A DNA stretch of 58,696 nt from Pseudomonadota bacterium (GTDB lineage: Bacteria > Pseudomonadota > Gammaproteobacteria > Steroidobacterales > Rariloculaceae): assembly GCA_036231525.1 (NCBI GenBank), contig JAZAGZ010000071.1, positions 1 through 58,696 of the forward strand. Direction: 5' to 3'. Shown piece by piece: positions 8,860 through 50,914 of the stretch. The notes beneath the pieces are model-generated. The model was given only the letters and a program-made list of their open reading frames with translations, searched no databases and had not been told where the DNA came from. Positions within the stretch are counted from its first letter, which is position 1; every line of letters starts with the position of its first letter. Made by a program: the position numbers and the translations under genes.

Positions 8860-8958
8860 ACGCAGTCGTACTCTTTACTTTCAGATAATTCGACTCGAAT
8901 TATTTAGACAAATTGAGACATCGAAATAAGGTTTTAATCGCCCGGTATAATCGTTGCG

Positions 8959-34329: not shown

Positions 34330-34364
34330 AAAAAAGGGACGCTCCAAGAACGGAGCGCCCCCCC
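34330..34364 (-). terminator. rho-independent terminator closing the 47139-34379 transcription unit
   Basis: The minus strand reads GGGGGGCGCTCC-gttctt-GGAGCGTCCC followed by TTTTTT. It begins about 15 nt after the OmpA-like stop codon. Confidence 0.7.
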
Positions 34365-34378
34365 GGAAAGCCCGACCG

Positions 34379-35215
34379 CTACTTCTGGGCAACCCGATTT
34401 TCGTTTCCGTTCCTGATGAGTGTCAGATCCACCCGACGCTCCATCGCCATCGAATCGACATCGTTCTCCTCTGCTGCGGCATACGTCTCACCATGCCCAT
34501 CAATCATGATTCTATTGAGTGGAACACCAGCCTCTATCAGTAAATCTCTAACGGAGATAGCACGTTGCGCGGACAGTTGATCGTTATGCTCCTGATCACC
34601 ACGAGAATCTGCGTGCCCTTCAATATGAATCAGTGTTCCATCCAGATCCGCGAGCAATCCTGCAAGGCGTAGCAATCTGTTCTGAGTTTCTCCAGGAAGT
34701 GTGCTTTCATTTGTTCTGAACAAGACCTGGACATCAAGTGCATCGCGAAGAGTGTTCCGCATCTCTCGATTTTCCTGATGGATCTGACTTTCGAGTACTG
34801 CAACTTGATGCTCACTACTGGTAACCAGATCATTCAGTGCTGCTACCTCCTCCTCAGCTTCGGTCCAGCGCTCTTCAAACCGAATTCGTGCGTTGCGCTC
34901 CTCATCGAATCGGTCTCCCAACCAAGCACCTAAAGTGGTCCCAAGAACCAGTCCAACCGGGCCTCCAGCAACTCCACCGATGACTGCACCACCACCGATC
35001 CTGATGGATTGATGTTTCGAAAATCGTGTGTCCTCTGCCGTCCATCCAGTGGAGGCGAACATGATAGCTGCCACCACAGCGATAACGCTTGTACCGAGCA
35101 TCGCACGTATCTTGCGAGCTTTGTTAGCCGAACGTTGTAACTCACGCCGACTGTCGTATATATCTTGCGAGCTTTGGTGATAGTGCTCATTCAGCGTTTT
35201 AATGGGGTTAACCAT
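34379..35215 (-). CDS. bitopic TM / glycine-zipper / coiled-coil protein with a C-terminal OmpA-like peptidoglycan-binding domain
   Basis: TM segment GTSVIAVVAAIMFAS, glycine zipper GGGAVIGGVAGGPVGLVLGTTLGAWLG, and a heptad-rich segment. OmpA_C signature: IHIEGHADSRGDQEHNDQLSAQRAISVRDLL...GHGE...ERRVDL. Strong AAGGAG Shine-Dalgarno. Confidence 0.8.
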   Translation of the reverse strand: MVNPIKTLNEHYHQSSQDIYDSRRELQRSANKARKIRAMLGTSVIAVVAAIMFASTGWTAEDTRFSKHQSIRIGGGAVIGGVAGGPVGLVLGTTLGAWLGDRFDEERNARIRFEERWTEAEEEVAALNDLVTSSEHQVAVLESQIHQENREMRNTLRDALDVQVLFRTNESTLPGETQNRLLRLAGLLADLDGTLIHIEGHADSRGDQEHNDQLSAQRAISVRDLLIEAGVPLNRIMIDGHGETYAAAEENDVDSMAMERRVDLTLIRNGNENRVAQK

Positions 35216-35347: not shown

Positions 35348-36352
35348 TTAGCCTCGGAGGGAAGGCAAGGCTACAAAGGTTCCGCCGTTCCTTTGGCAGA
35401 GAACTCGCATCAAAATAGCAAAGCGGGCCGAGGTCAATAATTCTCCATTTGTAACTTCGTAATAAACAGGAAAAGCAACGGCATGAATACGAACCCGTCG
35501 AGAGCCATCTTCACCAAGTTGATTACGACGATCTACTTCCCGTACCACTGCATTGATTGATCCCGCGGAAAAATCATCGCTGTAGACATAAAGACTAATC
35601 TTTTTATTAGGATCATAGAAAGTTTGAATAGCCTCTAGAATTCCTTCCCTGGGACTTGAGTTGGAGAACGCCTGCCAGTTGCGCAATCCATCTATAATGC
35701 GTCTTCGGATTTCAGTGCCGTCTGGAATCCACTGGTTTCGGTAACTCCGAAACATATACTCGCCCATGTCGTTGAGCACCTGAATACCCTTGACTTGGGG
35801 GTAGACCTGAAGCGTCTCCGAGATCTGTTGTTGGACACGATCCCAAGCATATCGTTGCATGCTCCCAGAAGTGTCGATAATGAAGATGATGTACTCGCTA
35901 TCCACAGGAATACCGCCCACCATGGACTCATCAGGATCGGGCTGGTAATTCGCTAGCAAACTTTGCATTTCCTCTGTCAATCTTTGCTTCGCCTGGGCTA
36001 ACCGACCCTCCAGCTCATTGGACATTTCAGCGTCATCTTGAGTTGCAAGAAATTCTGCTCGAATCCGCATGAGCTCGCTCTGCAGCTGCGCAATTTGCGT
36101 TTCATCCTGATCCACGTTTTCAATCGTGGCTAATCTTTCTCGCGTAATGATATTTGTTTGACCGATGATGTCCTCTAACTCTTGCTCATACTTAACAACT
36201 AAATTCTCAAGGTCCACATGAGTTTCTTCGAGCCGGATGGGTTCAAATATTTTTGTGATTACGAGAAGAAGTATTACCGCTCCGAATCCACAGCAGACAA
36301 CATCCAGAAATGACAGACTGCCGGTTTCGATATCACGACGCCGCTTTCTCAT
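35348..36352 (-). CDS. Asp-containing TM helix (MotB/ExbD-like) / coiled coil / vWA domain protein, paralog 2
   Basis: N-terminus MRKRRRDIETGSLSFLDVVCCGFGAVILLLVITK, then about 110 aa of acidic heptad-like sequence. The vWA domain has MIDAS IIFIIDTSGSM. The ATG at 36352 forms an ATGA overlap with the upstream stop; the track start is the TTG at 36358. Confidence 0.7.
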   Translation of the reverse strand: MRKRRRDIETGSLSFLDVVCCGFGAVILLLVITKIFEPIRLEETHVDLENLVVKYEQELEDIIGQTNIITRERLATIENVDQDETQIAQLQSELMRIRAEFLATQDDAEMSNELEGRLAQAKQRLTEEMQSLLANYQPDPDESMVGGIPVDSEYIIFIIDTSGSMQRYAWDRVQQQISETLQVYPQVKGIQVLNDMGEYMFRSYRNQWIPDGTEIRRRIIDGLRNWQAFSNSSPREGILEAIQTFYDPNKKISLYVYSDDFSAGSINAVVREVDRRNQLGEDGSRRVRIHAVAFPVYYEVTNGELLTSARFAILMRVLCQRNGGTFVALPSLRG

Positions 36353-37440
36353 GGCCAATCCTCCGAAGGAGCCATCATAGATCCCCCAGTGTTAAGCGCC
36401 AGCCACCAATAAGCTGGTGCAGACTGTGGGTCGCCTTCCATCGCGTACAAAATGATGTTGACCGGTACGTTGAAAGGTAAATCCCTAGTAGCCCGATTGA
36501 AATGTCCCATACGTTCTTTTCCCGTCACACCGGCACGATTTGGAATAACCTCGCCCATGGTCGGTAAACCATCGACCAGCAAATAGATATTGTCAGGCTT
36601 GGGGTCGAGAGGCCTCATAGCAGCAAAAGCAGCATGTAGGCTCGTGGGTCCATCTGGTGCTGTAACTCGTAACGACTCTACGGCTTCTTCCAAAAGATGG
36701 CCATCAGTAACAGTTTGCCACTGACCGTTACTACCCTCGATCAGGCTCCAAGCTGTGTCGTTGAATGCAAAGATTTGAATCTGAGTGCCTGGCTGTATTT
36801 GGGTCGTCAGCCAATCCACCGTATCTACAGTTTGACGCCATTTGGGGGCCTGCAGCTTTTGTTCCATAGGCATGTTGCGACGCCTAATCACATTCACGAT
36901 GGTCCGGTCCAACATGCTTGAGGATGTATCCACCAGTATCACCACCCGCTCCCCACCCATCCTTAGGCCAGTCAGGTATTGTCGGTTCCCGTCTCCGGTG
37001 AAAGCCCTAATGCGATTACCAGCGTCCTCTGGCGTGATGCTAGCCGCAGACAGTCGTTCGCTCTCTTCCTCTAAAGCTTCCAACTCCGAACGAAGTTGCT
37101 CTATCGCTTCTTCCTGTGCTGCCGTGTCCGCGGTCGCTGTGCTAAATTCTTCTTCCGTATCTTGAATCTCTGTAACTATTTCATCTTTAAGTCCCCGTAA
37201 TACGGCCCATTCCTCAATCAACCTTGCCAAGTCATCTGTTAACTGCACAAGATTCTTTCGTCCCGTTAGTACCTTGAGCTCCATTCGATCCACTTCACTC
37301 GCTAAATCCTCAAGAACCGCTTCCCGTCTCAGATCAATGTTGGCATTAATAATCATGAAAAAAAGTATTACCGCGCCAAACCCACACGTCATAGCATCAA
37401 GGAAAGATAGCGAAAAGACATTTATCGACTTACGAGCCAT
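36349..37440 (-). CDS. Asp-containing TM helix (MotB/ExbD-like) / coiled coil / vWA domain protein, paralog 1
   Basis: N-terminus MARKSINVFSLSFLDAMTCGFGAVILFFMIINA, then an acidic coiled-coil-like segment (EEAIEQLRSELEALEEESERL). The vWA domain has MIDAS VVILVDTSSSM, plus APDGPTSL and LLVDGLP. Eleven-nt overlap with the upstream gene. Confidence 0.7.
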   Translation of the reverse strand: MARKSINVFSLSFLDAMTCGFGAVILFFMIINANIDLRREAVLEDLASEVDRMELKVLTGRKNLVQLTDDLARLIEEWAVLRGLKDEIVTEIQDTEEEFSTATADTAAQEEAIEQLRSELEALEEESERLSAASITPEDAGNRIRAFTGDGNRQYLTGLRMGGERVVILVDTSSSMLDRTIVNVIRRRNMPMEQKLQAPKWRQTVDTVDWLTTQIQPGTQIQIFAFNDTAWSLIEGSNGQWQTVTDGHLLEEAVESLRVTAPDGPTSLHAAFAAMRPLDPKPDNIYLLVDGLPTMGEVIPNRAGVTGKERMGHFNRATRDLPFNVPVNIILYAMEGDPQSAPAYWWLALNTGGSMMAPSEDWP

Positions 37441-38842
37441 CGCGATCCTCTAAAGCTATGATTTGTAGCTCTTCCCCTGGCGAACCAATCCGAATAATGT
37501 CCGCGGGATGCAGGTCAACCTCACCGGAGACCCGCTTCTCATTCACGAAGGTACCGAAGCGACTAAGATCCATCAGTTTTATCTCTCCGTCCCTGCGAAC
37601 AACCTCGCAGTGAGCTCGAGAAACAGCGGTTTGGCTCTCATCGAGAACAATTGTATGACGCCCATCAAGAACCTCTCGACCAATAAAAAGAGAAGACCCA
37701 TCAATTGCATAAGCAACGCCACGATAGACTACATGAGTTGGCTCTGGAGCTAATGCCTCGGGATCACCCGTTACGCTCAATATCTGTTCTGGTTCTATGG
37801 GATCTAGTTGAATCGCTTCTCCCCTCCAGGGTAACCGTCTGAGAAGCTTAATCTGCCCACTTGATAACCTAATGTTTTCAAGGCTGCTGAGCGCACCCAG
37901 GGCTGCGGCGCCCGGAGCCATAGGGATGACGTTTGCATCATCCAGACGCATCACTTCATTCACAATACCTGGAAGGCGAAGAAGGCGATGAGATAGTTCC
38001 ACTACCAGACTCGCTCCCGCAGTCCGACATTGAGAAATGAGTTGCACTAGAGCGCGATAAAATCCGTCAGCAACGCCCAACAACTGGTCTCGCTGAATCT
38101 CCACATGGTGCTCTTCTCCACCATAAGGGAGCATAAGCTCAATATGATCCTCATCCTGGAGAGTTGTAAGCCACTCAGGCAACCGATCGTAAACCAGTTG
38201 TTCGGAGTCAGCTCTATGAAATGGGTCAAAGCGCGTTTGAAGGACAAATATCTCAGCTACTCGCTTCGCCCACAGATCGGTAAGCGAAGCGAAACCTACA
38301 CCACTCAGTGCCTGCTCGGGCTCTGCTGCAACATCATCGCCCTGCTCGAGCTGAGTTGCTGACACCCTATGTAATCCAGTGTCAACATAGATCAATTGGT
38401 GGCCCGGATACGGCTGTGTACTCGCAGCGATCCCTGCATCAATCATGGCCCGAACTGGCATCTTGCACTCTTGAGCAAGACCTAAAAGTAGTCCGAGTTG
38501 CTCACGCGTATAATGTCCAGGCACCACTAGGATTACATCCTTTTTGGAACCTCCAAAACGCTTCCAAAGAAGATCCAACTGCGTAAAAGCAAGCTCGGCC
38601 GAGCTTTCTACAGTATCAATGCCCGCACTTCCAGGTTCGAGACTCAAATCGTTCCAGTAACGATTGCTGGTTTGTCGCGGGTTCAATCGAGCCTGAGCAT
38701 ACGCTTCCACTCCAGTAACTATTGAATCATCTTTCAATACCAACGCAGCATATCCGGGCTCTTGCGCAAGGATCCCCGTATGGTCAGCGACCACCAGTTC
38801 AGCATCGTTAATATCGATGGCTAGCGTGCTTACGTTGCTCAA
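37430..38842 (-). CDS. cytoplasmic Hsp70/actin-fold-like protein fused to a C-terminal FHA domain
   Basis: LAIDINDAELVV, VILVVPGHYTREQLGLLLGLAQECKMPVRAMIDAGIAAS and LIYVDTGLHRVSAT align in order with the Hsp70 phosphate-1, connect and phosphate-2 motifs, but are degenerate. The C-terminus has a canonical FHA: FIGRE...VSRAHCEV...LMDLSRFGTFVNEKRV. The TTG start abuts the MotA-like stop. Confidence 0.6.
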   Translation of the reverse strand: MSNVSTLAIDINDAELVVADHTGILAQEPGYAALVLKDDSIVTGVEAYAQARLNPRQTSNRYWNDLSLEPGSAGIDTVESSAELAFTQLDLLWKRFGGSKKDVILVVPGHYTREQLGLLLGLAQECKMPVRAMIDAGIAASTQPYPGHQLIYVDTGLHRVSATQLEQGDDVAAEPEQALSGVGFASLTDLWAKRVAEIFVLQTRFDPFHRADSEQLVYDRLPEWLTTLQDEDHIELMLPYGGEEHHVEIQRDQLLGVADGFYRALVQLISQCRTAGASLVVELSHRLLRLPGIVNEVMRLDDANVIPMAPGAAALGALSSLENIRLSSGQIKLLRRLPWRGEAIQLDPIEPEQILSVTGDPEALAPEPTHVVYRGVAYAIDGSSLFIGREVLDGRHTIVLDESQTAVSRAHCEVVRRDGEIKLMDLSRFGTFVNEKRVSGEVDLHPADIIRIGSPGEELQIIALEDRDGS

Positions 38843-39649
38843 CTATGCTCCTCCACGAGCCTGCATGTGTCGTATGAGGTTATGATCGATATAGGTCTGG
38901 GTTTCGAAAACCTGCCGCTCCTGCAAGAGCTGAAGCTGGTGTACCAGAAACATCACCACAATTGAGATCAGTAATGCGATAAACGTACTGTTGAAGGCCG
39001 TACCAAGACTTTGCGTAACGCCTGCTATATCACCATCCACTGCACGATGCGCTTGGCCCAAAGCTTCACCGATACCCCGGACGGTACCAATAAACCCAAC
39101 TGACGGGATTGCCCACGCAATATAACGAATCATGGACAGCTCGGATTCAAGCCTCTCACTTTCGGACTCACACAGGGTATTTGCGACGGAGGACACGTCC
39201 TGAACATTTCGTGTAGACCCGAAACGCTCTAGCGCAGACAAGAGAGCCCGCGGTAACAGCATACCGCGCACGGTGCCCGGCAACGATTGAATCGTACGTG
39301 CGTACTCTCGGGTATCTTCCGGAAGAATTCGAACACCTTCCCCGACCGGTAAGAGCTCCTCTTGTAGTAATTTACGCTCTCCGGCCGCTTTGATCGCCTT
39401 GTAACCCATGATAGAAAATGCCCATAGCATTAAAACGAAACAAGCTTCCTGCTCGAAATCTCGAATTAGAACGTATAAGGAACGCTCAGGTGTGTAATTT
39501 GCATCTTCCTGAATTCGTAGTGCCTGTTCATCTATGATAGAGGTTGCCTGCGGACGAACGACCGTCACGTAAACAGCATGCACCAAAATCACAGCGATAA
39601 TTAGAGCGAATACCTGATAGAGAAATTCGTTGGGCAAATTACGTTTCAT
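38843..39649 (-). CDS. MotA/TolQ/ExbB-family proton channel protein
   Basis: 268 aa with four predicted TM helices and an approximately 90-aa loop between TM2 and TM3. Family signature in the last two helices: IAWAIPSVGFIGTVRGIGEAL...SLGTAFNSTFIALLISIVVMFL. Confidence 0.75.
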   Translation of the reverse strand: MKRNLPNEFLYQVFALIIAVILVHAVYVTVVRPQATSIIDEQALRIQEDANYTPERSLYVLIRDFEQEACFVLMLWAFSIMGYKAIKAAGERKLLQEELLPVGEGVRILPEDTREYARTIQSLPGTVRGMLLPRALLSALERFGSTRNVQDVSSVANTLCESESERLESELSMIRYIAWAIPSVGFIGTVRGIGEALGQAHRAVDGDIAGVTQSLGTAFNSTFIALLISIVVMFLVHQLQLLQERQVFETQTYIDHNLIRHMQARGGA

Positions 39650-39696: not shown

Positions 39697-39909
39697 TTAA
39701 ATATTCACCGGAAATACAATTTCTTCATCTGCAGCTATTTCTTCACTAGGAATAAAAATCTCACTCAAAGATCTCGTATCCGGCGGCTGGGGTGCAGACT
39801 CAGTCGATGCCGGTGGAGCAGTTTCCTCAGGCTCCGTATCCTGACTTACTACAGAAAATGGCATTGTCGCCAATAACATCATGGTAAAACCTGTACGTGC
39901 TATAGCCAC
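39697..39909 (-). CDS. small secreted acidic/Pro-rich protein (70 aa)
   Basis: Signal-like N-terminus MAIARTGFTMMLLATMPFSVVSQ, then DTEPEETAPPASTESAPQPPD...EEIAADEEIVFPVNI. It sits in an operonic position between two larger genes. Confidence 0.45.
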   Translation of the reverse strand: MAIARTGFTMMLLATMPFSVVSQDTEPEETAPPASTESAPQPPDTRSLSEIFIPSEEIAADEEIVFPVNI

Positions 39910-39958: not shown

Positions 39959-42415
39959 TCATTCCAAATTTCGAGCAATACGAAACCCAGTCTTTTCATC
40001 GCCTACTACACTGTAGTTTCGGGAAGCTGAGCGCAAGTCCGTTATCGTTGCACTTCGCCAATTAGCACCCCTTATCACATGGAAACGCCCAGTTTCCGGA
40101 CCGAGCGGATCTTCTAGAACAGTCTCGGTCTGAGTTTGACCTACCTGATAATAATCCTGCACCCACTCCGACACATTCCCACCGAGATCAAAAATCCCCA
40201 CAGCGTTAGCATCAAAGCTCCCCGATGGCGCCGTAGTGCTAAAACCATCGTTATAGGTCACGAGCGTTGTCGACAACAATTGTGCAGCGGATACATCAGC
40301 ATAATTGCCAGACCTATCTGGAGGCGGCAACGCAGCTCCCCAAGGATACGTCAGAGGGTCCTCCCGTGCAGCGAAGCGTGCTGCCCACGCCCATTCAGCT
40401 TCTGTTGGCAATCGATAACCGTTACGCAACGGCCTAACCGCAGTCCACCTCCCGTCACCTACTTCCTCGTAAACCGGTTGGAACCCGTCCTGGATGCTCA
40501 ACCAATTCATAAATTGAGCAACTTCCTCCCAAGTAATTCTCACCACCGGTTGATCATCCTCATTAAGGGAAACCCATGTGTGGACCCCTGAGTTATGATC
40601 AGCTTTGAATGCCCTAAATTCAGCATTACTAACCTCTTTGACCCCGAGATAAAACGCATTGTTAAGTCTCACTGCACGCAGTGCCTCATTTGAACGGCGA
40701 CCTTGTTCACGACGAGAAGAACCCATTGTGAACTCACCAGGAAGCACCAGCCTCAGTTCCTGTTCCAAGCTTGTCTGCACAACTCTGAGATACCCAGATC
40801 CGGTTGTTGTATCCAACTCCTCCAGCATTGTCTCCCACTTCTGAGGAAACCCTGGCCTAGGGGTGATCGTTGTCGACTGCAGCTTAAACCCGGTTAATCG
40901 TAGTTCGAGTTCATGGCTTACAGCATTTAGTGTTAGTTGAGCTGGGGTCACACCCCGAAGCTCACCGTCCACGAAAATTTGTGCGGCTGGAGGTGTACTC
41001 AATATCTCAACGATTCCAAGTTGAGCAACCATTGGAATCACAACCCTCTGCCCACTATCTGCCAATACCGAAAACTCTCTTGTCACAGACTCATAACCCG
41101 GCTTTGTTAATGCAATAGTATGAGGTTGTTCAGGAGTAAGTCGCAGGGTCAACGGTGTTTGCCCTTGAAATGAACCGTCCACGCTAACTGCCGCACCGGT
41201 AGGGTTGCTAATAAGCTCTACTCGTCCATCTGCTTGAGTTAGGCTAACCTCAGGTAAGGTCAACGCCTGATCTGCCAGCACAGTAATATTATCTTGCCAA
41301 GCGTTATAGCCTCTGAGCCGCACTTCAACTTGGCGTTCACCCGCACCTAACTCCAAAATCGCAGGAGTCGACCCAAGTAGCATTCCATCGACTAGAATCT
41401 CAGCGCCTGTCGGGCGGCTGCTCAAACTGACGGGCGCCCAGTTAGGGGTCAAAGCACCCGAAAAGGTTTGACGTTGATGCTCTCCAATCACCTCAAACTC
41501 AAGAACCTCTGAAAGATAACGCTCAGCAAAATACTCAATGCTATGCCGACCGGGAACAATCTCAATGTCACTCAAGGGCGCCGTCCCGAGGAAAATACCA
41601 TCCACATGCACGTTGGCACCAACATCTGGCTCTGTCACAAAAGTAATGAGTCCAGGTAATTTCGTGAATTCCAAACGCACGGACTGATCAGGTGATTGGC
41701 CCACTTCGACCACCTCATCCAGGGGATAGTAGCCCTCTAACCGTGCAGAGATATGATGCGATCCTGATCGCAGTAAAAACCGATCCCCCATTTGCACCTT
41801 AAAGAGTGTGCCCGGTATCTCCAATTCCTCTGGTGCCGGCTCAATAATGAGTTCGACTGATTTTGCCGTAAACGCAAACCAACCAAACACCGCTAGTAGC
41901 GCAAAAGCGCTGCCAACCATCATTGCCGACCGGTTAGGTCGTACCCTTAAACCACTGGTCTTTGCGTCCGCCTGAGAACGAAAAGTGATTGGAGCGATCT
42001 CAACTTCGTCAACCGCACCTATCTCTCGTGCGAGTTCTTCTAGATCTGGTGGGGCCGTATCACCTCCAGTTATCTGGCCTTCGATGTACAAGCTGAGCCG
42101 GCCAGCGCCAAGATCGCACCGGACCCGAGCAGTATCTAACGAAGCGGTTTCACCATCCTTTAGCCAACGGGATCCTACAATCGACTCTCCTTCGAGCCGC
42201 AATCCTCGGGTCTCTTTACCCGGTTGAATAAAGAATTCTCCATCAAGCGCACCGATCTGAAACGAGCCAGACACACCATGGAGTCGCACATCACACTCTG
42301 CGCCTCCACCAATTAGCACTGGCAAGTCACCGGCCGTAAAGTGGCGTTCCTGCCCGCCGGCAGAAGTCATTAGCACCCAGTTCTCAGACTCCATCATCAG
42401 ATTGACTCTACACAT
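39959..42415 (-). CDS. FHA-like / TM / PEGA-repeat / FGE-sulfatase(SUMF1)-like transmembrane protein
   Basis: The N-terminal approximately 110 aa have an FHA-like pattern (LPVLIGGGAECDVRL...GEFFIQ...LKDGE) but lack the canonical Arg/Ser/His/Asn. TM segment SAMMVGSAFALLAVFGWFAF. Four clear PEGA units: GANVHVDGIFLGTAPL, GAEILVDGMLLGSTPA, GAAVSVDGSFQGQTPL, AAQIFVDGELRGVTPA. The C-terminal FGE-like domain contains MGSSRREQGRRSNE...YLGVKEVSNAEF...RGANWRSA. An alternative start at 42397 gives a TGATG overlap. Confidence 0.7.
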   Translation of the reverse strand: MCRVNLMMESENWVLMTSAGGQERHFTAGDLPVLIGGGAECDVRLHGVSGSFQIGALDGEFFIQPGKETRGLRLEGESIVGSRWLKDGETASLDTARVRCDLGAGRLSLYIEGQITGGDTAPPDLEELAREIGAVDEVEIAPITFRSQADAKTSGLRVRPNRSAMMVGSAFALLAVFGWFAFTAKSVELIIEPAPEELEIPGTLFKVQMGDRFLLRSGSHHISARLEGYYPLDEVVEVGQSPDQSVRLEFTKLPGLITFVTEPDVGANVHVDGIFLGTAPLSDIEIVPGRHSIEYFAERYLSEVLEFEVIGEHQRQTFSGALTPNWAPVSLSSRPTGAEILVDGMLLGSTPAILELGAGERQVEVRLRGYNAWQDNITVLADQALTLPEVSLTQADGRVELISNPTGAAVSVDGSFQGQTPLTLRLTPEQPHTIALTKPGYESVTREFSVLADSGQRVVIPMVAQLGIVEILSTPPAAQIFVDGELRGVTPAQLTLNAVSHELELRLTGFKLQSTTITPRPGFPQKWETMLEELDTTTGSGYLRVVQTSLEQELRLVLPGEFTMGSSRREQGRRSNEALRAVRLNNAFYLGVKEVSNAEFRAFKADHNSGVHTWVSLNEDDQPVVRITWEEVAQFMNWLSIQDGFQPVYEEVGDGRWTAVRPLRNGYRLPTEAEWAWAARFAAREDPLTYPWGAALPPPDRSGNYADVSAAQLLSTTLVTYNDGFSTTAPSGSFDANAVGIFDLGGNVSEWVQDYYQVGQTQTETVLEDPLGPETGRFHVIRGANWRSATITDLRSASRNYSVVGDEKTGFRIARNLE

Positions 42416-43911
42416 TCCACCATAATCGGGGAGAGCTCCCGTCCAGGTATCACATTAAATGTTTGCCGGACGTCAACGAAGCCATCCCTACTACCCACGA
42501 CCGTGTAGCTGCCAGGCCGTAGCTCCAGGTTTCTGACACGAAATTTTCCTAGTTGGCCCACCCTGTACACCGTAACCTCAGTCTGTTCATCAGAGTGAAT
42601 CTCAACACGAATAGGCGTCGAAGCTAAACGAACCAATCGACTAAGTTCAGTGATTTGCTCTTCCAGCCGAGGTCCAGCCTCGGAGATGCCATGTGCCTCG
42701 GTCAACAGGTTCTCCGTATCACGCAATACTCGGTCATTAAACAGTAAGTCAGGGTTCTCGATAATATTTATCAGTTTGAGATCCAGGTCTACTCTGCTTT
42801 GCGCCCTCTGAAGCCCCTGCTGTGCAAACGCCAGGCTGGAATCCGTCTCTAGCGCATCCCGATATTGCCCGATAGCCAGCTCCCAAAGCTCCCTCAGTTC
42901 AAAAGCTAGTGCACGTGCTTCCACGAGCGCGATCTGATCGAGTTTTTGCCCTTGTTCTGCTTGAGTCTGACCATCCAAAGCATTGCGAGAATCCGGGCGA
43001 AGAACTAACGCCTGGGTAAAGAACTCATAGGCATCATCGTAATCCTCTTGCGCCAGATTACTTAGCCCCTGAGACATAAGCGTATCGAATCGCCTGTTCT
43101 GAATCACGGTGTTGACCGCCACTAACGCAGATTGTGCCGGTACCCAAAGACTGTCTATTACCAGTGCCTCACGATAACCCTCGGCTGCCTCTTCAAGGTT
43201 CCCGGCACGCTCAAACTCCTCAGCAACCCGCATCAACTCCAACACTTCGGGTAATTGCTGCGCTCTGAGCAAACCGGTTTGTGCGAGAGAATTTTCCGCT
43301 TCGATTCTAAGAACCAATTCAAACTGCTCCAACGCTACCGCCGAATTGCCAGCCTCAAGAGCTTCGCCGCCCGCGCTAAGCGCCGCAGTAATAAGCTCTA
43401 TCGAACGCTCAAGCAATTCCTCTCCCAATTCCAAAGCCTGAGAATAAGCAGGAACCGCATCATAAAAGGCATCTATGAGGTAAGCGTCATCGCCCTCCCT
43501 CGAAAGAGCCTGATAAAGCCCAAAATCCTCTCCCCCCCACTCAGAAACAGACTGTCCATCTAGCTCACCCTGCTGACTCAGTAAAAGCGCTAACAAACTT
43601 TCAGCCTGATCCCTCAGATCTTCCAATTCCTCAGGTGTAAAAAAAGGACCTTCAGACACCGCAGGAGTGTCAAGTTGCGTCCCCTCCACAACAGGTACTT
43701 GTTCCCCTTGCTCCTCAACCCAGTTTGGTAAAACAAAGAACACCACCCCTGCTATCGCAATCAGAACGCCCAGTAGAACTCCGGGGAGTGAAATCATGCC
43801 CGTCCGTTTAGGGTCATCCCTAAAATTGTTTGACCGGGCGCCCTTGAGTCCTGGTCTGACCGGAACAATGGCTTCTTCATGCCCGGGATTTTGAGGCTGT
43901 TGATCTGTCAT
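42397..43911 (-). CDS. bitopic TM protein with periplasmic TPR-like repeats and a C-terminal PEGA-like beta domain
   Basis: TM segment LPGVLLGVLIAIAGVVFFVL. Repeated helical A/E/L-rich units such as GNLEEAAEGYREALVIDSLWVPA and EDYDDAYEFFTQALVLRPDS. The C-terminus is LRPGSYTVVGSRDGFVDVRQTFNV. ATGA overlap with the kinase gene. Confidence 0.55.
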   Translation of the reverse strand: MTDQQPQNPGHEEAIVPVRPGLKGARSNNFRDDPKRTGMISLPGVLLGVLIAIAGVVFFVLPNWVEEQGEQVPVVEGTQLDTPAVSEGPFFTPEELEDLRDQAESLLALLLSQQGELDGQSVSEWGGEDFGLYQALSREGDDAYLIDAFYDAVPAYSQALELGEELLERSIELITAALSAGGEALEAGNSAVALEQFELVLRIEAENSLAQTGLLRAQQLPEVLELMRVAEEFERAGNLEEAAEGYREALVIDSLWVPAQSALVAVNTVIQNRRFDTLMSQGLSNLAQEDYDDAYEFFTQALVLRPDSRNALDGQTQAEQGQKLDQIALVEARALAFELRELWELAIGQYRDALETDSSLAFAQQGLQRAQSRVDLDLKLINIIENPDLLFNDRVLRDTENLLTEAHGISEAGPRLEEQITELSRLVRLASTPIRVEIHSDEQTEVTVYRVGQLGKFRVRNLELRPGSYTVVGSRDGFVDVRQTFNVIPGRELSPIMVECVESI

Positions 43912-44774
43912 GGTCTTTGCATCATAGACAATTCAATTGACGCCAATTCTAAGGCATCGGCAAAGGGACTGATGTCCTCATACGGCCCCTTTGTAGCAGG
44001 ACTTAACACTTTAAATACAAGCTCGGCCAGAGACTTTAAGCCCTCAATCCCACCAGATTCGAGTATTTTCAAGGGTCTGCAGAATTTTTCGAGCATTTCC
44101 AAAGACGGGTTCCTGCCAAAAGGTAGAGTACCGGTCCAAAGCTCGTAGATCAGAGCAGCAAAAGAGTACACATCATCACCCACAGTTGCCGGACCACCTT
44201 GCCTCTGGTTTGCGCTTTGGTAGTCAGCCGTGCCACCGCCTTGGTGTGCACGCGTACCAACTGACACAGCGAGACTGAAATCGATTAAACACGGCTCATC
44301 CCCGGGGCGCAGTAAAACGTTCCGCACCTTTATATCACGATGGAGAATTCCCAAAGCATGCATATACCCCAGCGCGCTCGCGAGTTGGGCGGCCACTGGC
44401 ACCCACTGCCGAGGCTTACCACCTGCTAGAGATACCAAGTCTCCCCCCCCTACGTACTCCATTACGAGACCGATCTCTCCACCCATCTCTATGAGCCCCA
44501 ACACAGAAACAATATTTCTGTGTGAAAGGTCATTAAGAAATCTGTACTCCCGAAGAATAAGCTCGCGAGTCGCTACACGATTCATTACATCTGGATTAGA
44601 TGCCTTGACTGCAATCGGAGTTCCCGTAGATCTTGTCGCCGCCCATACCTGGGACATACCACCCTGACCCAGGCATGCACCCAGACAAAGCTCCTCTTCG
44701 AAGGGCTCGGGGGTTATATGGAAAAGTGGGTTATTCACGGAACCGAAAAGGGAGCGCCTTGATAAGAGCGCCAA
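43908..44774 (-). CDS. stand-alone Hanks-type Ser/Thr protein kinase (catalytic domain only)
   Basis: Gly loop LGQGGMSQVW, VAIK-like IAVK, catalytic loop HRDIKVRNVLL, DFG replaced by DFS, subdomain IX DVYSFAALIYELWTGTLPF. No TM helix or extra domain. Confidence 0.8.
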   Translation of the reverse strand: MALLSRRSLFGSVNNPLFHITPEPFEEELCLGACLGQGGMSQVWAATRSTGTPIAVKASNPDVMNRVATRELILREYRFLNDLSHRNIVSVLGLIEMGGEIGLVMEYVGGGDLVSLAGGKPRQWVPVAAQLASALGYMHALGILHRDIKVRNVLLRPGDEPCLIDFSLAVSVGTRAHQGGGTADYQSANQRQGGPATVGDDVYSFAALIYELWTGTLPFGRNPSLEMLEKFCRPLKILESGGIEGLKSLAELVFKVLSPATKGPYEDISPFADALELASIELSMMQRP

Positions 44775-44787
44775 CCGTGCGGACCAC

Positions 44788-46110
44788 TCAAACGCCGGTG
44801 GTTACCTCGCCGTCACTATCGGCGCTCTCTTTCGCCTTACTACTTTCCTCAAGCAACTCGGTCTCCTCCTCCGACGGAACCTCAGATAATGCCTCCGTGT
44901 AGATATCCACCTCGGGGACTAGCCCCGTCTCTGATTGATATAGCTGTAACAGAAGCTCGCGCCACTCTTCATATTGAGCATCAGCAGTTCCAGTAAGCCG
45001 GTGCTGAACCCCCTCAATATCAACAACCATGGGTCTGACCTCCTCATCAAAGCTAGAGGAAAGTTCCTCAAGGCTTGCTGTATGCAACCGCCTCTCCTGC
45101 CGACGAAGAGCTCCAGTTCTTATCATATCCATGCTCATATACATGATGGAATCGCGGAGAACTCGCTGGGAGTAACTATTATTACCACCGCTACTCCCAT
45201 AAAGAACGGATGCTACAACTCCCGCGATGCCCAAACCCGTCCGCCAGTTAGCCGAACGTTGTAACTCTCGAATAGCAAGTGCCTCTTCACGAGCGAACTC
45301 GCGCCAACCGTCGTATGAATCTTGCGAATTTTGGTAGAAGTCCACGTAGTGCTCGTTCAGCGTTTCGATGAACAGATGCTCACGTTCGCGCACACGCAAA
45401 GTACGCTCAAATTGAGGGTCATCCTCAGCTGGTAAGCGTCTCAGCTCATATGCACCATTGCGTCTCTGCTCCACATAATCACCGAACGCTTCGGGACTAA
45501 GTTCCCCTGCAAAACGAATCTGAGACACCGAGCGGATGTTTCGCGCCTCGGTTGACGATAAGTCGCCCCTAACTGCAGCAAGATCGTTGGCAATATTATT
45601 AAAGACGTCCTGATATGGATCAAGATCGGGATACCGCTGTCGATTGTATGACCCGGCAGCGGTTTCCATACCATACTCGTCATCTAACCATATCCTGCCG
45701 GTCGCATCAGTGGCTATCACATCCAGTCGTACCCGATCGCCATCTGATTGGCGAATCTCCGCGGTAATATTGATGTCGGCGGCAGTCGACTCTTCTGGGG
45801 TTACCCATACACCTCCCCAGTGACCACTCTTTTGAAGAGTGTCCCTAAGGTGGACTGCCATGTAACGTGCCTCTGTACGACGAATCTGAACGAAGGTTCC
45901 ATCATTAATGAGCTCCTCAAGTAGCTCATGATCAATCTCACCTTCGGGAACCCCCGAATCAAACACGACTATGCTAACGTCTAGCAGCTCTTCTTCAGGC
46001 ACGGTCGCTGTCTCAGGCACAAGCTCAACGGAGTGAGCAACAATAACTTCATTGCTGCTGCACCCGGAAACTACACCTGCGATCAAGATCAGTATGCCAA
46101 TTCGCCGCAT
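44788..46110 (-). CDS. lipoprotein of unknown function (440 aa) with an acidic C-terminal tail
   Basis: Lipobox IAGVVSGCSS. One internal hydrophobic Gly-rich segment, GLGIAGVVASVLYGSSGG. The C-terminal tail is EVPSEEETELLEESSKAKESADSDGE. Confidence 0.55.
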   Translation of the reverse strand: MRRIGILILIAGVVSGCSSNEVIVAHSVELVPETATVPEEELLDVSIVVFDSGVPEGEIDHELLEELINDGTFVQIRRTEARYMAVHLRDTLQKSGHWGGVWVTPEESTAADINITAEIRQSDGDRVRLDVIATDATGRIWLDDEYGMETAAGSYNRQRYPDLDPYQDVFNNIANDLAAVRGDLSSTEARNIRSVSQIRFAGELSPEAFGDYVEQRRNGAYELRRLPAEDDPQFERTLRVREREHLFIETLNEHYVDFYQNSQDSYDGWREFAREEALAIRELQRSANWRTGLGIAGVVASVLYGSSGGNNSYSQRVLRDSIMYMSMDMIRTGALRRQERRLHTASLEELSSSFDEEVRPMVVDIEGVQHRLTGTADAQYEEWRELLLQLYQSETGLVPEVDIYTEALSEVPSEEETELLEESSKAKESADSDGEVTTGV

Positions 46111-46122
46111 AACTCTCTCCGT

Positions 46123-47139
46123 CTACTGACGTCCCAATATTCTTTTGTACTCGTTGTACTCTTCCCAGAGGGCAGCACGTAAAAACGGGTCCTCCTCGTC
46201 GGTTGCCGCCTCACAAAGCTGTCGAGCAACCGTATTTTCGTCTTCACAACCCTCAACCTGGGGAGTAGTACGCTCCCGTGGTGCGGACTGTTCGAAAACA
46301 GATCCGCTACCAGATGTGGAGTCGCCACCACTGCTATTAACATTGCCGCCACCACTTGTACCCGATGGCTGTCCGTCACCTTCTCCCGCTATAGTACTAC
46401 CAGAACCGGAACCAGTCGTCATACCTCCACCCGCGCTGGAACCAGCGCCGACAGCACCAGCCTCGCGAAAGATCTCATCTGCTGCCGAACCAATCCCCTG
46501 TTGCGCCATCTGCTCGCGCTCGGCGCCCATAATCTCGTCAAAATCTTCCAACGATCGATTAAAGCCTCCCTCTGCCTCGGATGCTGCTGGGCTGCCGTTA
46601 CCGAATCCACTGTCGCCACCAGGCCACCCACCGTCAACTTGCTCACCCCCAGCCCCTTGGCCTGACTGATCAACACCCGCCTGGCGAGTATCACCATTCC
46701 CACCGTCAGAGCCTTCTGTCTGATTGTCTCCACCGGTATCTTGACCAGCCTGCTCCTGTCCACCTTGACCTGGAAGTGCACCGCCAGGGAAATTACCCTG
46801 CTGACCCTGCTGACCCTGCTGCCCGGCCTGCTGTTGACCTTGCTGACCCTGCTGACCCTGTTGACCTTGCTGGCCCTGCTGCCCGGCCTGCTGTTGACCC
46901 TGTTGACCTTGCTGGCCCTGCTGCCCGGCCTGCTGTTGGCCCTGCTGGCTTTGTTGGCTCTGCTGGCTCTGAGACTGGCTCTGAGACTGGCTCTGAGACT
47001 GGCTCTGAGACTGGCTCTGGGACTGGCTCTGGGACTGGCTCTGGGACCGGCTCTGCTGCTGCGGTGGTGTCACACAACCCACAAGCATGGCTGATATAAA
47101 CAAAGCCAAAAACCGGCATCGGGCACTCTTTAAGAGCAT
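46123..47139 (-). CDS. low-complexity lipoprotein: SQ dipeptide array, Q/G-rich array, G/S/D-rich region and a small structured Cys-containing C-terminus
   Basis: GAGGTG Shine-Dalgarno 7 nt before the ATG at 47139. Signal peptide with lipobox AMLVGC. About 14 consecutive SQ dipeptides, then QQGQQ/QQAGQQ repeats. The C-terminal approximately 60 aa are non-repetitive (VEGCEDENTVARQLCEAATDEEDPFLRAALWEEYNEYKRILGRQ). Confidence 0.65.
   Translation of the reverse strand: MLLKSARCRFLALFISAMLVGCVTPPQQQSRSQSQSQSQSQSQSQSQSQSQSQSQSQSQQSQQSQQGQQQAGQQGQQGQQGQQQAGQQGQQGQQGQQGQQGQQQAGQQGQQGQQGNFPGGALPGQGGQEQAGQDTGGDNQTEGSDGGNGDTRQAGVDQSGQGAGGEQVDGGWPGGDSGFGNGSPAASEAEGGFNRSLEDFDEIMGAEREQMAQQGIGSAADEIFREAGAVGAGSSAGGGMTTGSGSGSTIAGEGDGQPSGTSGGGNVNSSGGDSTSGSGSVFEQSAPRERTTPQVEGCEDENTVARQLCEAATDEEDPFLRAALWEEYNEYKRILGRQ
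46798..46964. repeat. imperfect 9-nt-periodic tandem repeats (CTG-YTG-RCC units; encode the QQG array) with higher-order repeats
   Basis: Runs of CTGCTGACC / CTGTTGACC / TTGCTGGCC units. The longer unit containing GCCCGGCCTGCTGTTG recurs at about 46821, 46881 and 46923. Confidence 0.8.
46965..47048. repeat. perfect/near-perfect 12-nt tandem repeat, 7 copies (encodes the SQ array)
   Basis: The plus strand reads GGCTCTGAGACT four times, then GGCTCTGGGACT twice, then GGCTCTGGGACC once. The copies are head to tail and in frame within the 46123-47139 CDS. Confidence 0.9.
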
Positions 47140-48942: not shown

Positions 48943-50259
48943 CTAAAAATACCAAGCAAGCTGAATAAAAATCCCTGGCCCGGTAGAAAGTTGCGATCCA
49001 GGCACTCCTAGATCGATGCCTCCATACTCAGTGCCAGACCTGCCAACCGGTATGTTAAGTGCGCCCAAAAGTAGCATGCTCTCGTTCAGATCTGTTTGGG
49101 TCGTAATCTGCACGAGCGCACTGTCATCTTCGATATTCAAAAATAGATTCGGCGTGAGAAGGAATAAAGGAGTAATCTCGATCAGCGCGCTCAGCCCAAT
49201 GTAGTGTCGCCCAAGATTAAAAATCTCGCCCCGTGAAAGACGCGCTAACAAGTTCGGGTTCGAGGTAAGATCGATGGTGCTGTAGTTAGTACCCCTTTGA
49301 CCAAATCCATTCAAGTAGTACTCAATGACCGCGCTAACATTCTTTCCGATCCATGAAAACGAATGACTAAGACTAGTAACCGCCGATACAATGCTGCCTT
49401 CATTGTCCGTGAACGTCACCATGAGATCGCCCCGCCAGAGTGCGCCGCCGATTCCGTAATTACCTCCAAGGCCTACGAGGTTTTCACCAAAATGGCGTGC
49501 TAGAACAAAATCGTATTCTCCAGCCCCGAAAACCCCATGATATTTTGCGGCGAAAGAACTTTGATTAGTTTCTACGTTTCTTGTTAGAGAATCCCGATGA
49601 AAAACAACCACAGCCTGGAGATCATCGCCACTATCACGCAGATACTGTCCATAGAGCATGTCATCGCCTGACTTATACTCCTTATCTATCGCTGTCGGAT
49701 CGAATGGATTGAAAATATCCATTACCGTGTTGAAGATAAGTCCATTGCCCCACGTCACCGCCTGGCGGCCAAAACGCAGTACACCATTATCCCCTGTGTA
49801 ACCTGCAGAAAATCTATCCAGCCTGCCTAGAGTCGCCTGTTTATCATCATCCGTAATGATTTTGGTAAGGTCGAATAAACGCTGATCATCACTCGGCAAA
49901 CGAGGGAACAAAATCTGAAGTTCATCATCAAAATCGCGAGTAAGCTCAATGATGTCTCCATAAAATGCGCCGAACTGCGTATCCACTTGCAGATCCCATC
50001 TATCTCCACCCAAATTAGCATTCAATCGCGCATCAAAGCCGAGATCTTCACCACTAGAACCTATACGACTGCGAAAAAAACCGTCATCAGGAAACGTGGT
50101 GGAAGTCATGCGGTACTTCGTATGTCCGCTGATATCGAAGTTAGATGTCTGAGCCGCACACACTCCATAGCTCAATACGGTTAGAACGCATATTGAACAC
50201 AAGCGCCTCACGATGCGGTTACACCGCTTCCTGATCAATATCCTCGACGAGCTTTCCAT
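48943..50259 (-). CDS. outer-membrane beta-barrel protein of unknown function
   Basis: Signal peptide ending YGVCAAQ. Alternating-hydrophobic strands throughout and a terminal aromatic residue (...IQLAWYF). The 5' end overlaps the ABC ATPase stop by 41 nt, so the true start is uncertain. Confidence 0.55.
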   Translation of the reverse strand: MESSSRILIRKRCNRIVRRLCSICVLTVLSYGVCAAQTSNFDISGHTKYRMTSTTFPDDGFFRSRIGSSGEDLGFDARLNANLGGDRWDLQVDTQFGAFYGDIIELTRDFDDELQILFPRLPSDDQRLFDLTKIITDDDKQATLGRLDRFSAGYTGDNGVLRFGRQAVTWGNGLIFNTVMDIFNPFDPTAIDKEYKSGDDMLYGQYLRDSGDDLQAVVVFHRDSLTRNVETNQSSFAAKYHGVFGAGEYDFVLARHFGENLVGLGGNYGIGGALWRGDLMVTFTDNEGSIVSAVTSLSHSFSWIGKNVSAVIEYYLNGFGQRGTNYSTIDLTSNPNLLARLSRGEIFNLGRHYIGLSALIEITPLFLLTPNLFLNIEDDSALVQITTQTDLNESMLLLGALNIPVGRSGTEYGGIDLGVPGSQLSTGPGIFIQLAWYF

Positions 50260-50911
50260 CTAACATCCGAATGAGGCGCCTAGCGTAACCCATCACCATT
50301 TGATCGTGGGTTGCTATAACAAACGTTGTACCACGATGCTGATTCAACTCTACGAACAACTCCATAAGATGCCTGGCTGTGTTTGAATCCAGATTCGCAG
50401 TGGGTTCGTCGGCAAGCACAATAGCGGGATTCGATGCTATAGCACGCGCAACTGCAACGCGTTGTTGCTGACCACCCGACATTTTTGCTGGTCGCCTATC
50501 CTCCAGTCCTTCAAGCCCGACTTCGCTGAGAATCTCCAGGGAGCGTTTTTTTCGATCGACAACGGATACGCCCTGAACTTGCATGACGAACTCAACATTC
50601 TCTCGGGCAGTAAGCACAGGAATAAGATTGTAGGCCTGAAAAACAAAACCGATCCGATGTAACCGCATACGCGCCAACGGAGCCTTAGACAAGTTATCGA
50701 TTCTTTTACCAGCGATCCAAATCTCACCGCTGTCTGGTCGATCCAAACCACCCATCACATTTAACAGCGTTGTCTTGCCTCCACCAGATGGTGAACGCAA
50801 ACAAACAAAACCACCTTCCTCTACTTCAATGCTTACGCCATTGAGACCGATGACATCTTCATCGCCCTGCTTATAAATCTTGCGCACATCAATACAACGG
50901 ACTGCATGCAT
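50219..50911 (-). CDS. ABC transporter ATP-binding protein (LolD/MacB-type)
   Basis: Walker A SPSGGGKTT, Q-loop, signature MSGGQQQRVAVARA, Walker B IVLADEPTANLD, H-loop ATHD. Confidence 0.85.
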   Translation of the reverse strand: MHAVRCIDVRKIYKQGDEDVIGLNGVSIEVEEGGFVCLRSPSGGGKTTLLNVMGGLDRPDSGEIWIAGKRIDNLSKAPLARMRLHRIGFVFQAYNLIPVLTARENVEFVMQVQGVSVVDRKKRSLEILSEVGLEGLEDRRPAKMSGGQQQRVAVARAIASNPAIVLADEPTANLDSNTARHLMELFVELNQHRGTTFVIATHDQMVMGYARRLIRMLDGKLVEDIDQEAV

Positions 50912-50914
50912 AGC

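Follow-up and report, generated by a model that had tools for sequence, protein, structure and literature searches.

To our knowledge, ion-driven complexes of the 5:2 type (Mot, Ton, Tol, Gld, Agl and Zor) are the only known route by which double-membraned bacteria bring energy of the inner membrane to the periplasm and the outer membrane, and each newly understood output of these complexes has opened a field. The locus described here lies in a 58,696-nucleotide stretch of DNA (positions 1 to 58,696 of contig JAZAGZ010000071.1, assembly GCA_036231525.1; hereafter the window) from a gammaproteobacterium of the family Rariloculaceae. It contains two neighbouring genes, vWA-1 and vWA-2, which encode proteins with a single transmembrane (TM) helix, a helical stalk and a head of the von Willebrand factor A (vWA) type. 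We consider it fairly probable that these two unlike proteins together serve as inner subunits in an ion-driven membrane complex of the TolQ/ExbB type.

The closest described proteins are the "TPH-vWA" proteins of a computational study published in 2025 (PMC12204202), which started from a seed of Idiomarina loihiensis and found them mainly in Proteobacteria and Verrucomicrobia. According to the sections of that paper that describe them, TPH-vWA proteins carry a vWA domain on one TM helix with a TolR/ExbD-like Asp and without an SHLS/His motif, occur in heterologous pairs, and co-occur tightly with tolQ homologs in the absence of tolR or exbD. The TolQ-like protein contains a Thr ring, and the authors proposed the pair as the inner dimer of a 5:2 motor. 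In AlphaFold3 models of a complex of homologous architecture, the two Asp residues are enclosed by the Thr ring of the pentamer, the support being computational only. Every feature stated in these sections is found in the window pair, the match being one of described features and not of seed sequences. The first-pass annotation of this DNA, made from the letters alone, had considered a periplasmic metal-dependent adhesion domain as the output of a rotary stator to be a new architecture, a claim that has to be withdrawn in view of PMC12204202. As far as TPH-vWA proteins are described there, the window pair is a further example of their kind, and the idea of a motor is sound as a hypothesis and anticipated in print. 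The same sections contain no mention of a PEGA/FGE protein, a small secreted protein, an Hsp70-like protein with a forkhead-associated (FHA) domain, a kinase or head fusions. New here are the conserved core genes, to which, in a wider sense, the one for the Hsp70-like protein also belongs, a lineage-specific layer of Ser/Thr kinase and FHA proteins, and fusions that pair the heads. No other description of the architecture beyond PMC12204202 was found in the literature searched. Idiomarina is not among the named homolog matches listed, and a search starting from the distant member P0375 yielded Halieaceae and no Idiomarina.

Both open reading frames (ORFs) are present on the minus strand at the place given by the first-pass annotation, which had called them tandem paralogs, and a BLASTP comparison (28% identity over 177 amino acids, E=2e-12) bears this out. 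The motif strings that it had quoted, SLSFLDAMTCGFGAVILFF, SLSFLDVVCCGFGAVILLL, DTSSS and DTSGS, are exact. The second ORF was listed as 35348-36358, but its start is most likely the ATG at 36352, yielding a protein of 334 residues, because this ATG forms an ATGA overlap with the stop codon of vWA-1 and public gene calls begin there as well. Database searches retrieved at least 4318 homologs of vWA-1 and at least 8000 of vWA-2, and a profile built from both paralogs, applied to clusters at 50% identity, matched 3093 of them with E<=1e-3, including 516 with E<=1e-30. Given these numbers, the pair is a real feature and far from chance. A collection of species-representative genomes (one genome per species) contains at least 569 relatives, and the locus statistics given below refer to the best 80 of these, in which the vWA genes and their neighbours were sought by tblastn; this sample was partly chosen by a pattern that includes the TM Asp. 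The hosts of the best loci are labelled as Gammaproteobacteria (Woeseiaceae, Chromatiales and relatives), Acidobacteriota and Desulfobacterota. The family is common among marine and sediment bacteria, and cultured hosts (Congregibacter, Parahaliea, Pseudohaliea and strain NOR5-3) make it more testable. No match to the proteins was found in plasmid collections.

The most conserved part of the sequence is a hydrophobic stretch of about 23 residues, SLSFLD..CGFGA.IL, and its Asp is near-invariant. A HMMER search that was unbiased for the motif provided 150 best representatives, 121 of which have a residue at the Asp column (the others lack the N-terminus owing to miscalled starts, fragments or other architectures). 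Asp is present in 120 of these 121 sequences, with Ser as the single exception. In the genome loci, Asp is found in 80 of 81 vWA-1 and in all 78 vWA-2 sequences. Conservation of this residue had been set as a check by the first-pass annotation, and it holds in nearly all sequences. Ordinary signal anchors are not conserved in the way of this Asp-bearing helix. A MAFFT alignment with the E. coli proteins places the Asp in the same column as D23 of TolR, D25 of ExbD and D32 of MotB. The flanks on the N-terminal side of the helix are basic (net charge +2 and +3) and those on the C-terminal side acidic, while neither helix contains a His residue.

The acidic, heptad-like segment that the first-pass annotation had seen behind the TM helix corresponds to a helical stalk of about 100 residues with a hydrophobic period of 3.45 residues in vWA-1 and 3.5 in vWA-2 (p ~0.01 and ~0.05 against shuffled sequences) and a net charge of -17 and -14, respectively. 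AlphaFold2 (AF2) models based on family alignments (mean predicted local distance difference test score of 74 for each protein) show one helix from about residue 11 to 133, comprising TM segment and stalk, followed by an α/β domain. In both models the helix is broken at about residues 104-108, and this shared break at ~105 is consistent with stalks that would run in register.

The α/β domain is a vWA head with an intact motif for a metal-ion-dependent adhesion site (MIDAS), as the first-pass annotation had proposed. Foldseek searches of the PDB, with best E-values of 1.2e-6 for vWA-1 and 7.9e-8 for vWA-2, retrieved almost exclusively vWA proteins or chains containing a vWA domain among the top 50 matches listed for each model; they include CLCA1, BatB, CMG2/TEM8, Rpn10, ITIH1 and alpha2-delta. 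The window proteins score 19.0 and 17.9 bits with the Pfam model VWA_2 and are thus below its cut-off of 27, which is passed by the close homologs P0024 (28.0 bits) and P0030 (28.1 bits). The MIDAS positions (D-x-S-x-S, T/S and D) are invariant or nearly so in both paralogs. The T266 column of vWA-1 contains 76 Thr and 5 Ser in the loci, and vWA-2 has the invariant residues S230/S232 at the place of the usual MIDAS Thr; in the diverse representatives, the residue counts at the five positions are D143/E6, S150, S143, T94/S34 and D138. A single N-in TM helix with the bulk of the protein in the periplasm is predicted, in line with the periplasmic heads that had been deduced from the positive-inside rule; the basic N-terminal and acidic C-terminal flanks, and relatives that carry the heads behind a signal peptide or a BlaR1-type domain, point in the same direction.

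The probable partner of the pair is a TolQ/ExbB/MotA-like protein encoded in the same operon. When aligned with E. coli TolQ, ExbB and MotA (taken from NC_000913.3), it retains the Pro and Gly residues of TM2 (P182 and G185), and T189 corresponds to T145 of TolQ and T148 of ExbB, while T222 corresponds to T178 of TolQ, T181 of ExbB and T209 of MotA. Both pore-lining threonines are thus conserved. The relation of this protein to TolQ/ExbB is based on the Pfam match and the alignment with the E. coli proteins. Neither the window nor any of the 80 related loci contains an ORF that resembles TolR or ExbD, and a TolA/TonB-like transducer with an SHLS motif is likewise not present. A PEDTREY motif in the cytoplasmic loop of the TolQ-like protein was considered as a phosphorylation site and dropped, as its Thr is found in only 48 of 70 homologs.

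The tandem vWA pair is present in 80/80 loci, and a family hidden Markov model detects the TolQ-like gene in 70 of these. Of the ten loci in which it is missing, six are short contigs, so that the gene is found in 70 of 74 informative loci. The first-pass annotation had placed the two putative plug subunits next to a MotA-like gene, which holds in so far as all three genes belong to the same operon; they do not directly adjoin, since the gene for the 470-residue Hsp70-like/FHA protein lies between the MotA-like gene and vWA-1. In distant loci the MotA-like gene is found directly upstream of the pair (L092, which has no Hsp70-like gene) or one gene away from it (L091, L093 and L094). In a sister group (L012, L013 and L017), a MotA-like gene is located downstream of vWA-2, at ~10.1-10.9 kb, and the Asp is kept. 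This relocated TolQ-like gene is 43% identical to that of the window and belongs to one gammaproteobacterial clade; in some genomes of this clade the TolQ-like gene is out of the cluster altogether.

The pairing of the two heads is also observed within single chains. Fusions of vWA-1-type and vWA-2-type heads exist, and in P0264, P0271, P0272 and P0283 the head pair follows a BlaR1-type Peptidase_M56 membrane domain. One BlaR1-type gene (L087:3022-5609) adjoins a BlaI/Penicillinase_R repressor gene, and no motor gene is found nearby. In P0243, a signal peptide precedes the heads, and the gene stands alone among unrelated metabolic genes and transposases. Because the heads are fused behind either a signal peptide or a BlaR1-type membrane domain, this Rosetta-stone evidence indicates that they work together outside the cytoplasm. 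The BlaR1-type and secreted forms occur away from motor genes, which suggests that the head pair is a mobile ligand-binding module, whose link to the TolQ-like partner specifically is the Asp helix. The order of the heads is reversed, with the vWA-2-type head first, in P0243 and its putatively secreted counterparts P0279, P0316 and P0349 (loci L088-L090 at 8001-9422), and P0293 (542 residues) is a BlaR1-type M56 protein with a vWA-1-type head only.

Domain anatomy, conservation, gene linkage and head pairing are thus direct observations, and several further ones weigh against an assignment of the two proteins as inner subunits of a motor. Neither the N-terminal 47-52 residues nor the full-length proteins match the Pfam families ExbD (PF02472) or MotB_plug (PF13677), for the N-terminal segments even at E<=10. 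A search of PDB sequences with the profile of both paralogs did not find the TM region of ExbD, TolR or MotB; it returned coiled-coil noise and a non-significant match to the periplasmic region of MotB (E=0.07). A phmmer search of the PDB with the TolQ-like protein found no chain at E<=0.01. Four loci with full flanks (L005, L010, L011 and L016) have no MotA-like gene within 8 kb of the pair and keep the Asp. In rare lineages, the Asp of one subunit is replaced, namely by Ala in the vWA-1 protein of L019 and by Ser in P0117 (vWA-1 type) and in P0335 (vWA-2 type, L091:7928-9999), the vWA-1 partner of which keeps it. The Ser variant of P0335 is not a sequencing error, as it is found on more than 24 contigs. 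The strongly acidic stalks would be unusual for a simple two-stranded coiled coil. Finally, the head pair is also used with non-motor anchors, and its basic role may be ligand sensing and not force delivery.

In the first-pass annotation, the helix was read as a plug helix of the MotB/ExbD/TolR type. This reading agrees with the conserved Asp and its aligned position at the cytoplasmic end, but not with the lack of a significant match to ExbD or MotB_plug, because of which the homology of the helix rests on a short motif and its context. Some lineages keep the Asp in only one of the two putative plug helices, which suggests that one Asp per heterodimer can suffice.

The use of the heads with other anchors raises the question of whether the pair is a transmembrane sensor, which would read a periplasmic ligand and relay the signal via stalk and TM helices to the Hsp70-like/FHA protein and the kinase, with the TolQ-like protein serving as gate or energiser and not as a motor acting mechanically on a target in the outer membrane. 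Such a sensor would be compatible with an ion-driven complex, and it is prompted by the head pair replacing the sensor domain of BlaR1-type M56 proteins beside BlaI/Penicillinase_R with no motor gene near, by the soluble secreted head pair encoded as a stand-alone gene, and by the Ser/Thr kinase, the canonical FHA domain and the FHA-like domain that the lineage of the window possesses. Yet the clusters of Halieaceae and other distant hosts keep the TolQ-like gene and the pair without a kinase, and a sensor leaves the invariant Asp in the membrane, the intact Thr ring of the TolQ-like protein and a stalk of 15 nm unexplained. As a substitute for a motor, the sensor is rather unlikely.

A second alternative starts from the Hsp70-like gene, which separates the MotA-like gene from vWA-1, overlaps the start of the latter, with which it is translationally coupled, and is present in most of the loci as well as in Congregibacter, where its product is homologous to that of the window (E=2e-24). 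By profile search of the PDB, the protein matches FHA structures down to 2.6e-7 and, weakly, members of the Hsp70 family (SSZ1 with E=0.004, SSB1 and SSE1); its N-terminal ~330 residues show motifs that, by eye, resemble the Hsp70 nucleotide-binding domain. It may be a degenerate ATPase of the ASKHA fold docked at the motor. The vWA pair could then be a passive heterodimeric scaffold like PilN/PilO or GspL/M, docked by its short N-terminal tails to an actin/Hsp70-fold protein, with an Asp that merely serves helix packing and a TolQ-like protein that has another partner. A short tail, a TM helix, a coiled coil and a periplasmic head in unlike pairs is also the plan of PilN/PilO. However, the Hsp70-like profile gave no match to PilM or FtsA structures, L092 has the MotA-like gene and the pair without the Hsp70-like gene, no other candidate for a TolR/ExbD partner was found in the window or the 80 loci, and the Asp and its surrounding motif are far more conserved than an anchor needs. 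We regard a mere scaffold as distinctly improbable. That the N-terminal segments are cleavable signal peptides of soluble periplasmic vWA proteins has hardly any likelihood: the I-N-A sequence behind the vWA-1 helix is readable as a signal-peptidase site (positions 31-33 are I/V, N/S and A/S in most homologs) and soluble secreted relatives of the head pair exist, but vWA-2 has no comparable cleavage motif, the AF2 helix continues unbroken into the stalk, and signal peptides are short and poorly conserved, whereas the stretch with the invariant Asp is the most conserved part of the protein.

The pair is part of an operon of 12.8 kb on the minus strand, which runs from position 47139 to an intrinsic-terminator-like hairpin (Table 1). 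In the 818-residue PEGA/FGE protein, a TM helix connects a cytoplasmic domain that is FHA-like but degenerate with PEGA repeats and a domain of the FGE-sulfatase fold; a profile of its N-terminal part matches FHA structures at 1e-4. The OmpA-like protein encoded by the last gene contains a TM helix, a glycine zipper, a coiled coil and an OmpA domain. The lipoprotein encoded by the first gene contains a long (SQ)n run and, behind it, low-complexity repeats of the (QQG)n type; its C-terminal region is short and conserved. The kinase and TM-TPR (tetratricopeptide repeat) genes are separate and overlapping in the window, while they are fused in several other genomes (L079:487-2904, L067:191-2632 and L075:524-3046) and encode a protein of 805-840 residues that resembles a receptor kinase.

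Table 1. Features of the vWA operon and of the two vWA proteins in the window. Locus counts refer to the 80-locus sample.
Feature	Coordinates	Strand	Residues	Description
vWA-1	36349..37440	-	363 aa	Bitopic protein: transpore-type helix, helical stalk, vWA head; begins MARKSINVFSLSFLDAMTCGFGAVILFF
vWA-1 TM helix	37345..37413	-	aa 10-32	SLSFLDAMTCGFGAVILFFMII; Asp15 codon 37396-37398
vWA-1 acidic helical stalk	37042..37344	-	aa 33-133	AF2 helices 11-103 and 106-133
vWA-1 head	36361..36963	-	aa ~160-360	MIDAS D171-x-S173-x-S175 (36916-36930), T266, D290
vWA-2	35348..36352	-	334 aa	Paralog, plan as in vWA-1; begins MRKRRRD
vWA-2 TM helix	36251..36319	-	aa 12-34	SLSFLDVVCCGFGAVILLLVIT; Asp17 codon 36302-36304
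vWA-2 acidic helical stalk	35951..36250	-	aa 35-134	AF2 helices 12-104 and 109-134
vWA-2 head	35363..35905	-		MIDAS D160-x-S162-x-S164 (35861-35875), S230/S232, D259
TolQ/ExbB/MotA-like channel subunit	38843..39649	-	268 aa	3 TM helices; PF01618 E=1.7e-14
Predicted lipoprotein	46123..47139	-	338 aa	First operon gene; present wherever the flank is long enough (7 loci)
Predicted lipoprotein	44788..46110	-	440 aa	Lipobox; conserved in the cluster; 53/80 loci, count limited by flank length
Ser/Thr protein kinase	43908..44774	-	288 aa	Pkinase 1.1e-31; 48/80 loci
TM protein	42397..43911	-	504 aa	Periplasmic TPR repeats and beta-sandwich domain; TPR gene in 58/80 loci
PEGA/FGE bitopic protein	39959..42415	-	818 aa	PEGA 1.7e-40, FGE-sulfatase 1.2e-38; 67/80 loci
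Small secreted protein	39697..39909	-	70 aa	Signal peptide, acidic Pro-rich segment, C-terminal motif FIPSEEIAADEEIVFPVNI-COOH
Hsp70-like/FHA protein	37430..38842	-	470 aa	Cytoplasmic; FHA PF00498 E=1.5e-13; 77/80 loci
OmpA-like peptidoglycan-binding protein	34379..35215	-	278 aa	OmpA 8.6e-19; 31/80 loci
Intrinsic-terminator-like hairpin	34333..34364	-		14-bp stem with 8 G-C pairs, T run; closes the operon

Between the genes for the FGE-fold and TolQ-like proteins, a small ORF conforming to a strict pattern is found in 56 of 65 loci. The consensus C-terminus of its product, FIPSEEIxADExIxFPVDI-COOH, is near-invariant. A first ORF comparison had recovered the small ORF in 6 loci, and the suspicion that it is spurious was ruled out by direct inspection, which showed that its sequence, although low in complexity, is conserved. 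MIDAS sites bind ligands of the type of an acidic terminal peptide, and the acidic C-terminus of the small secreted protein is a possible candidate for a ligand of MIDAS or of β-strand augmentation. The protein has a length of 54-120 residues across the loci, and in distant clusters it is encoded at L091:5603-5809, L093:6604-6768 and L094:7617-7880.

Such distant clusters help to separate core from accessory genes. In distant members, among them the cultured Congregibacter brevis, the genes follow one another in the sequence PEGA/FGE protein, small protein, MotA_ExbB protein, Hsp70-like protein, vWA-1 and vWA-2, and a kinase gene is absent; likewise, no Pkinase match was obtained in L091, L093 and L094, which represent Halieaceae and other distant clusters. 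Since these clusters keep them without a kinase, the conserved core consists of the vWA pair together with the TolQ-like, the FGE-fold and the small secreted protein, and the kinase/FHA layer is an add-on of the lineage of the window.

Other genes of the window lie outside this operon. An ABC transporter resembling LolCDE, with two MacB_PCD/FtsX permease genes beside a single ABC_tran gene, followed by genes for a LolA_like and a DUF4159 protein, is encoded at 50219-54233 on the minus strand; it is an ordinary context of envelope biogenesis and unlinked to the vWA operon in other loci. Two genes for pyridoxal-phosphate enzymes of Cys/Met metabolism (55712-56881 and 57703-58632, minus strand) flank a MOSC-domain gene, and the second one (309 residues) covers only positions 77-381 of the profile, so that it may be N-terminally truncated or its start miscalled.

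If vWA-1 and vWA-2 are inner subunits of an ion-driven complex, each would insert with its N-terminus in the cytoplasm, and the helix with the protonatable Asp would occupy the pore of a TolQ-like pentamer, where it would face the threonine ring, as the helices of TolR, ExbD and MotB do. That two unlike plug subunits share one pentamer is plausible; insertion into the pore, a 5:2 (5:1:1) stoichiometry, coupling to protons, an output of force and a ligand on the heads are inferred. The two acidic stalks, each of ~100 residues or ~15 nm, would extend side by side into the periplasm and carry a heterodimer of vWA heads, the MIDAS sites of which would bind a partner via a carboxylate. Proton flow through the channel formed by the TolQ-like protein and the Asp could then turn or pull the stalk and perform work on a partner held by the heads. 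This partner may be one of the co-encoded periplasmic components, for which the PEGA/FGE-fold protein, the lipoproteins, the OmpA-like peptidoglycan anchor and the small secreted protein are candidates. In the lineage of the window, the kinase, the Hsp70-like/FHA protein and the FHA-like domain of the PEGA/FGE protein probably gate assembly or activity via phospho-threonine.

A more specific scheme can be offered tentatively, with a likelihood that we judge to be limited. The 7-12 genes would encode an envelope machine that is powered by the proton-motive force and regulated by phosphorylation, a catch-and-pull device in which a motor drives two unlike, stalked MIDAS heads that grip either the FPVDI-COOH terminus of the small protein or the PEGA/FGE protein, and in which, in some lineages, the kinase would switch the motor through the Hsp70-like/FHA protein as a clutch on the cytoplasmic plug tails. 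The genes of this putative machine are found in Gammaproteobacteria (Woeseiaceae and relatives, and Halieaceae), Acidobacteriota and Desulfobacterota. The C-terminal motif of the small secreted protein provides it with a named candidate ligand.

The membrane-anchored BatA/BatB proteins (3ibs and 4jdu) have a vWA fold with MIDAS in common with the window pair, and one of the best structural matches of vWA-1 is BatB. Bat proteins are not known to be linked to MotA/TolQ-like genes, and no genes of a MoxR/Bat-type cluster surround the pair. An assignment to the "ternary" conflict systems of MoxR and vWA proteins (PMC7159879) was rejected, because no AAA/MoxR-type match was found among the 12 operon proteins scanned; MotA is never mentioned in PMC7159879. 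Zorya and other anti-phage systems were likewise rejected, as PADLOC gave no match for vWA-1, vWA-2, the TolQ-like or the Hsp70-like/FHA protein. Its matches in the operon are restricted to generic kinase and OmpA/ZorB-C-terminal models, and the NCBIfam model ZorA_4 scored 14 bits against a cut-off of 500 (E=0.013).

The GldLM/PorLM motors with their GldK/PorK-GldN ring share with the window locus a motor of the 5:2 type, putative in the window, a long periplasmic extension of the inner subunit, an FGE-fold partner and a partner of the OmpA family. The best NCBIfam match of the 818-residue protein is GldK/PorK (E=4.8e-27), with 95 bits against a cut-off of 350, and the other matches to models of gliding or type IX secretion are limited to GldJ (27.7 against 458 bits) and PorE (38.2 against 600 bits). 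Neither GldL nor GldM is related in sequence to the window proteins, and GldM has no vWA head. The Agl-Glt focal-adhesion machinery of Myxococcus (AglR with AglQ and AglS) combines a pentamer of the TolQ type, in which the inner subunits are TolR-like and unlike each other, with a bitopic protein that has a cytoplasmic FHA domain beside its TM helix (GltG), TPR proteins and the vWA/MIDAS protein CglB as adhesive output (PMC11761067, PMC9946355), and resembles the window locus in these elements, the pentamer and its inner subunits being putative in the latter. In Agl-Glt, however, a separate outer-membrane lipoprotein carries the vWA domain instead of the plug subunits, of which AglQ and AglS are short proteins of the TolR type, and GltG has a TonB-like end instead of PEGA and FGE domains. 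For both Gld and Agl-Glt, the sequence tests of membership failed, and the likeness appears to be thematic.

With the TolQ-TolR, ExbB-ExbD and MotA-MotB complexes, the window proteins have in common a PF01618 channel subunit with its TM2 and TM3 residues, including the two threonines, and an inner subunit, putative in the window, with a short basic cytoplasmic N-terminus, a single TM helix and an Asp near its cytoplasmic end. While the inner subunits of these complexes form a homodimer, two unlike paralogs are present here, and the TolR/ExbD fold or the OmpA-like domain is replaced by a helical stalk with a vWA/MIDAS head, the OmpA-like domain being located on a separate protein. If true, a motor with integrin-like MIDAS heads would grip its target directly, without an adaptor of the TolA/TonB type, and such a catch-and-pull device would be distinct from Ton, Tol, Mot, Gld and Agl.

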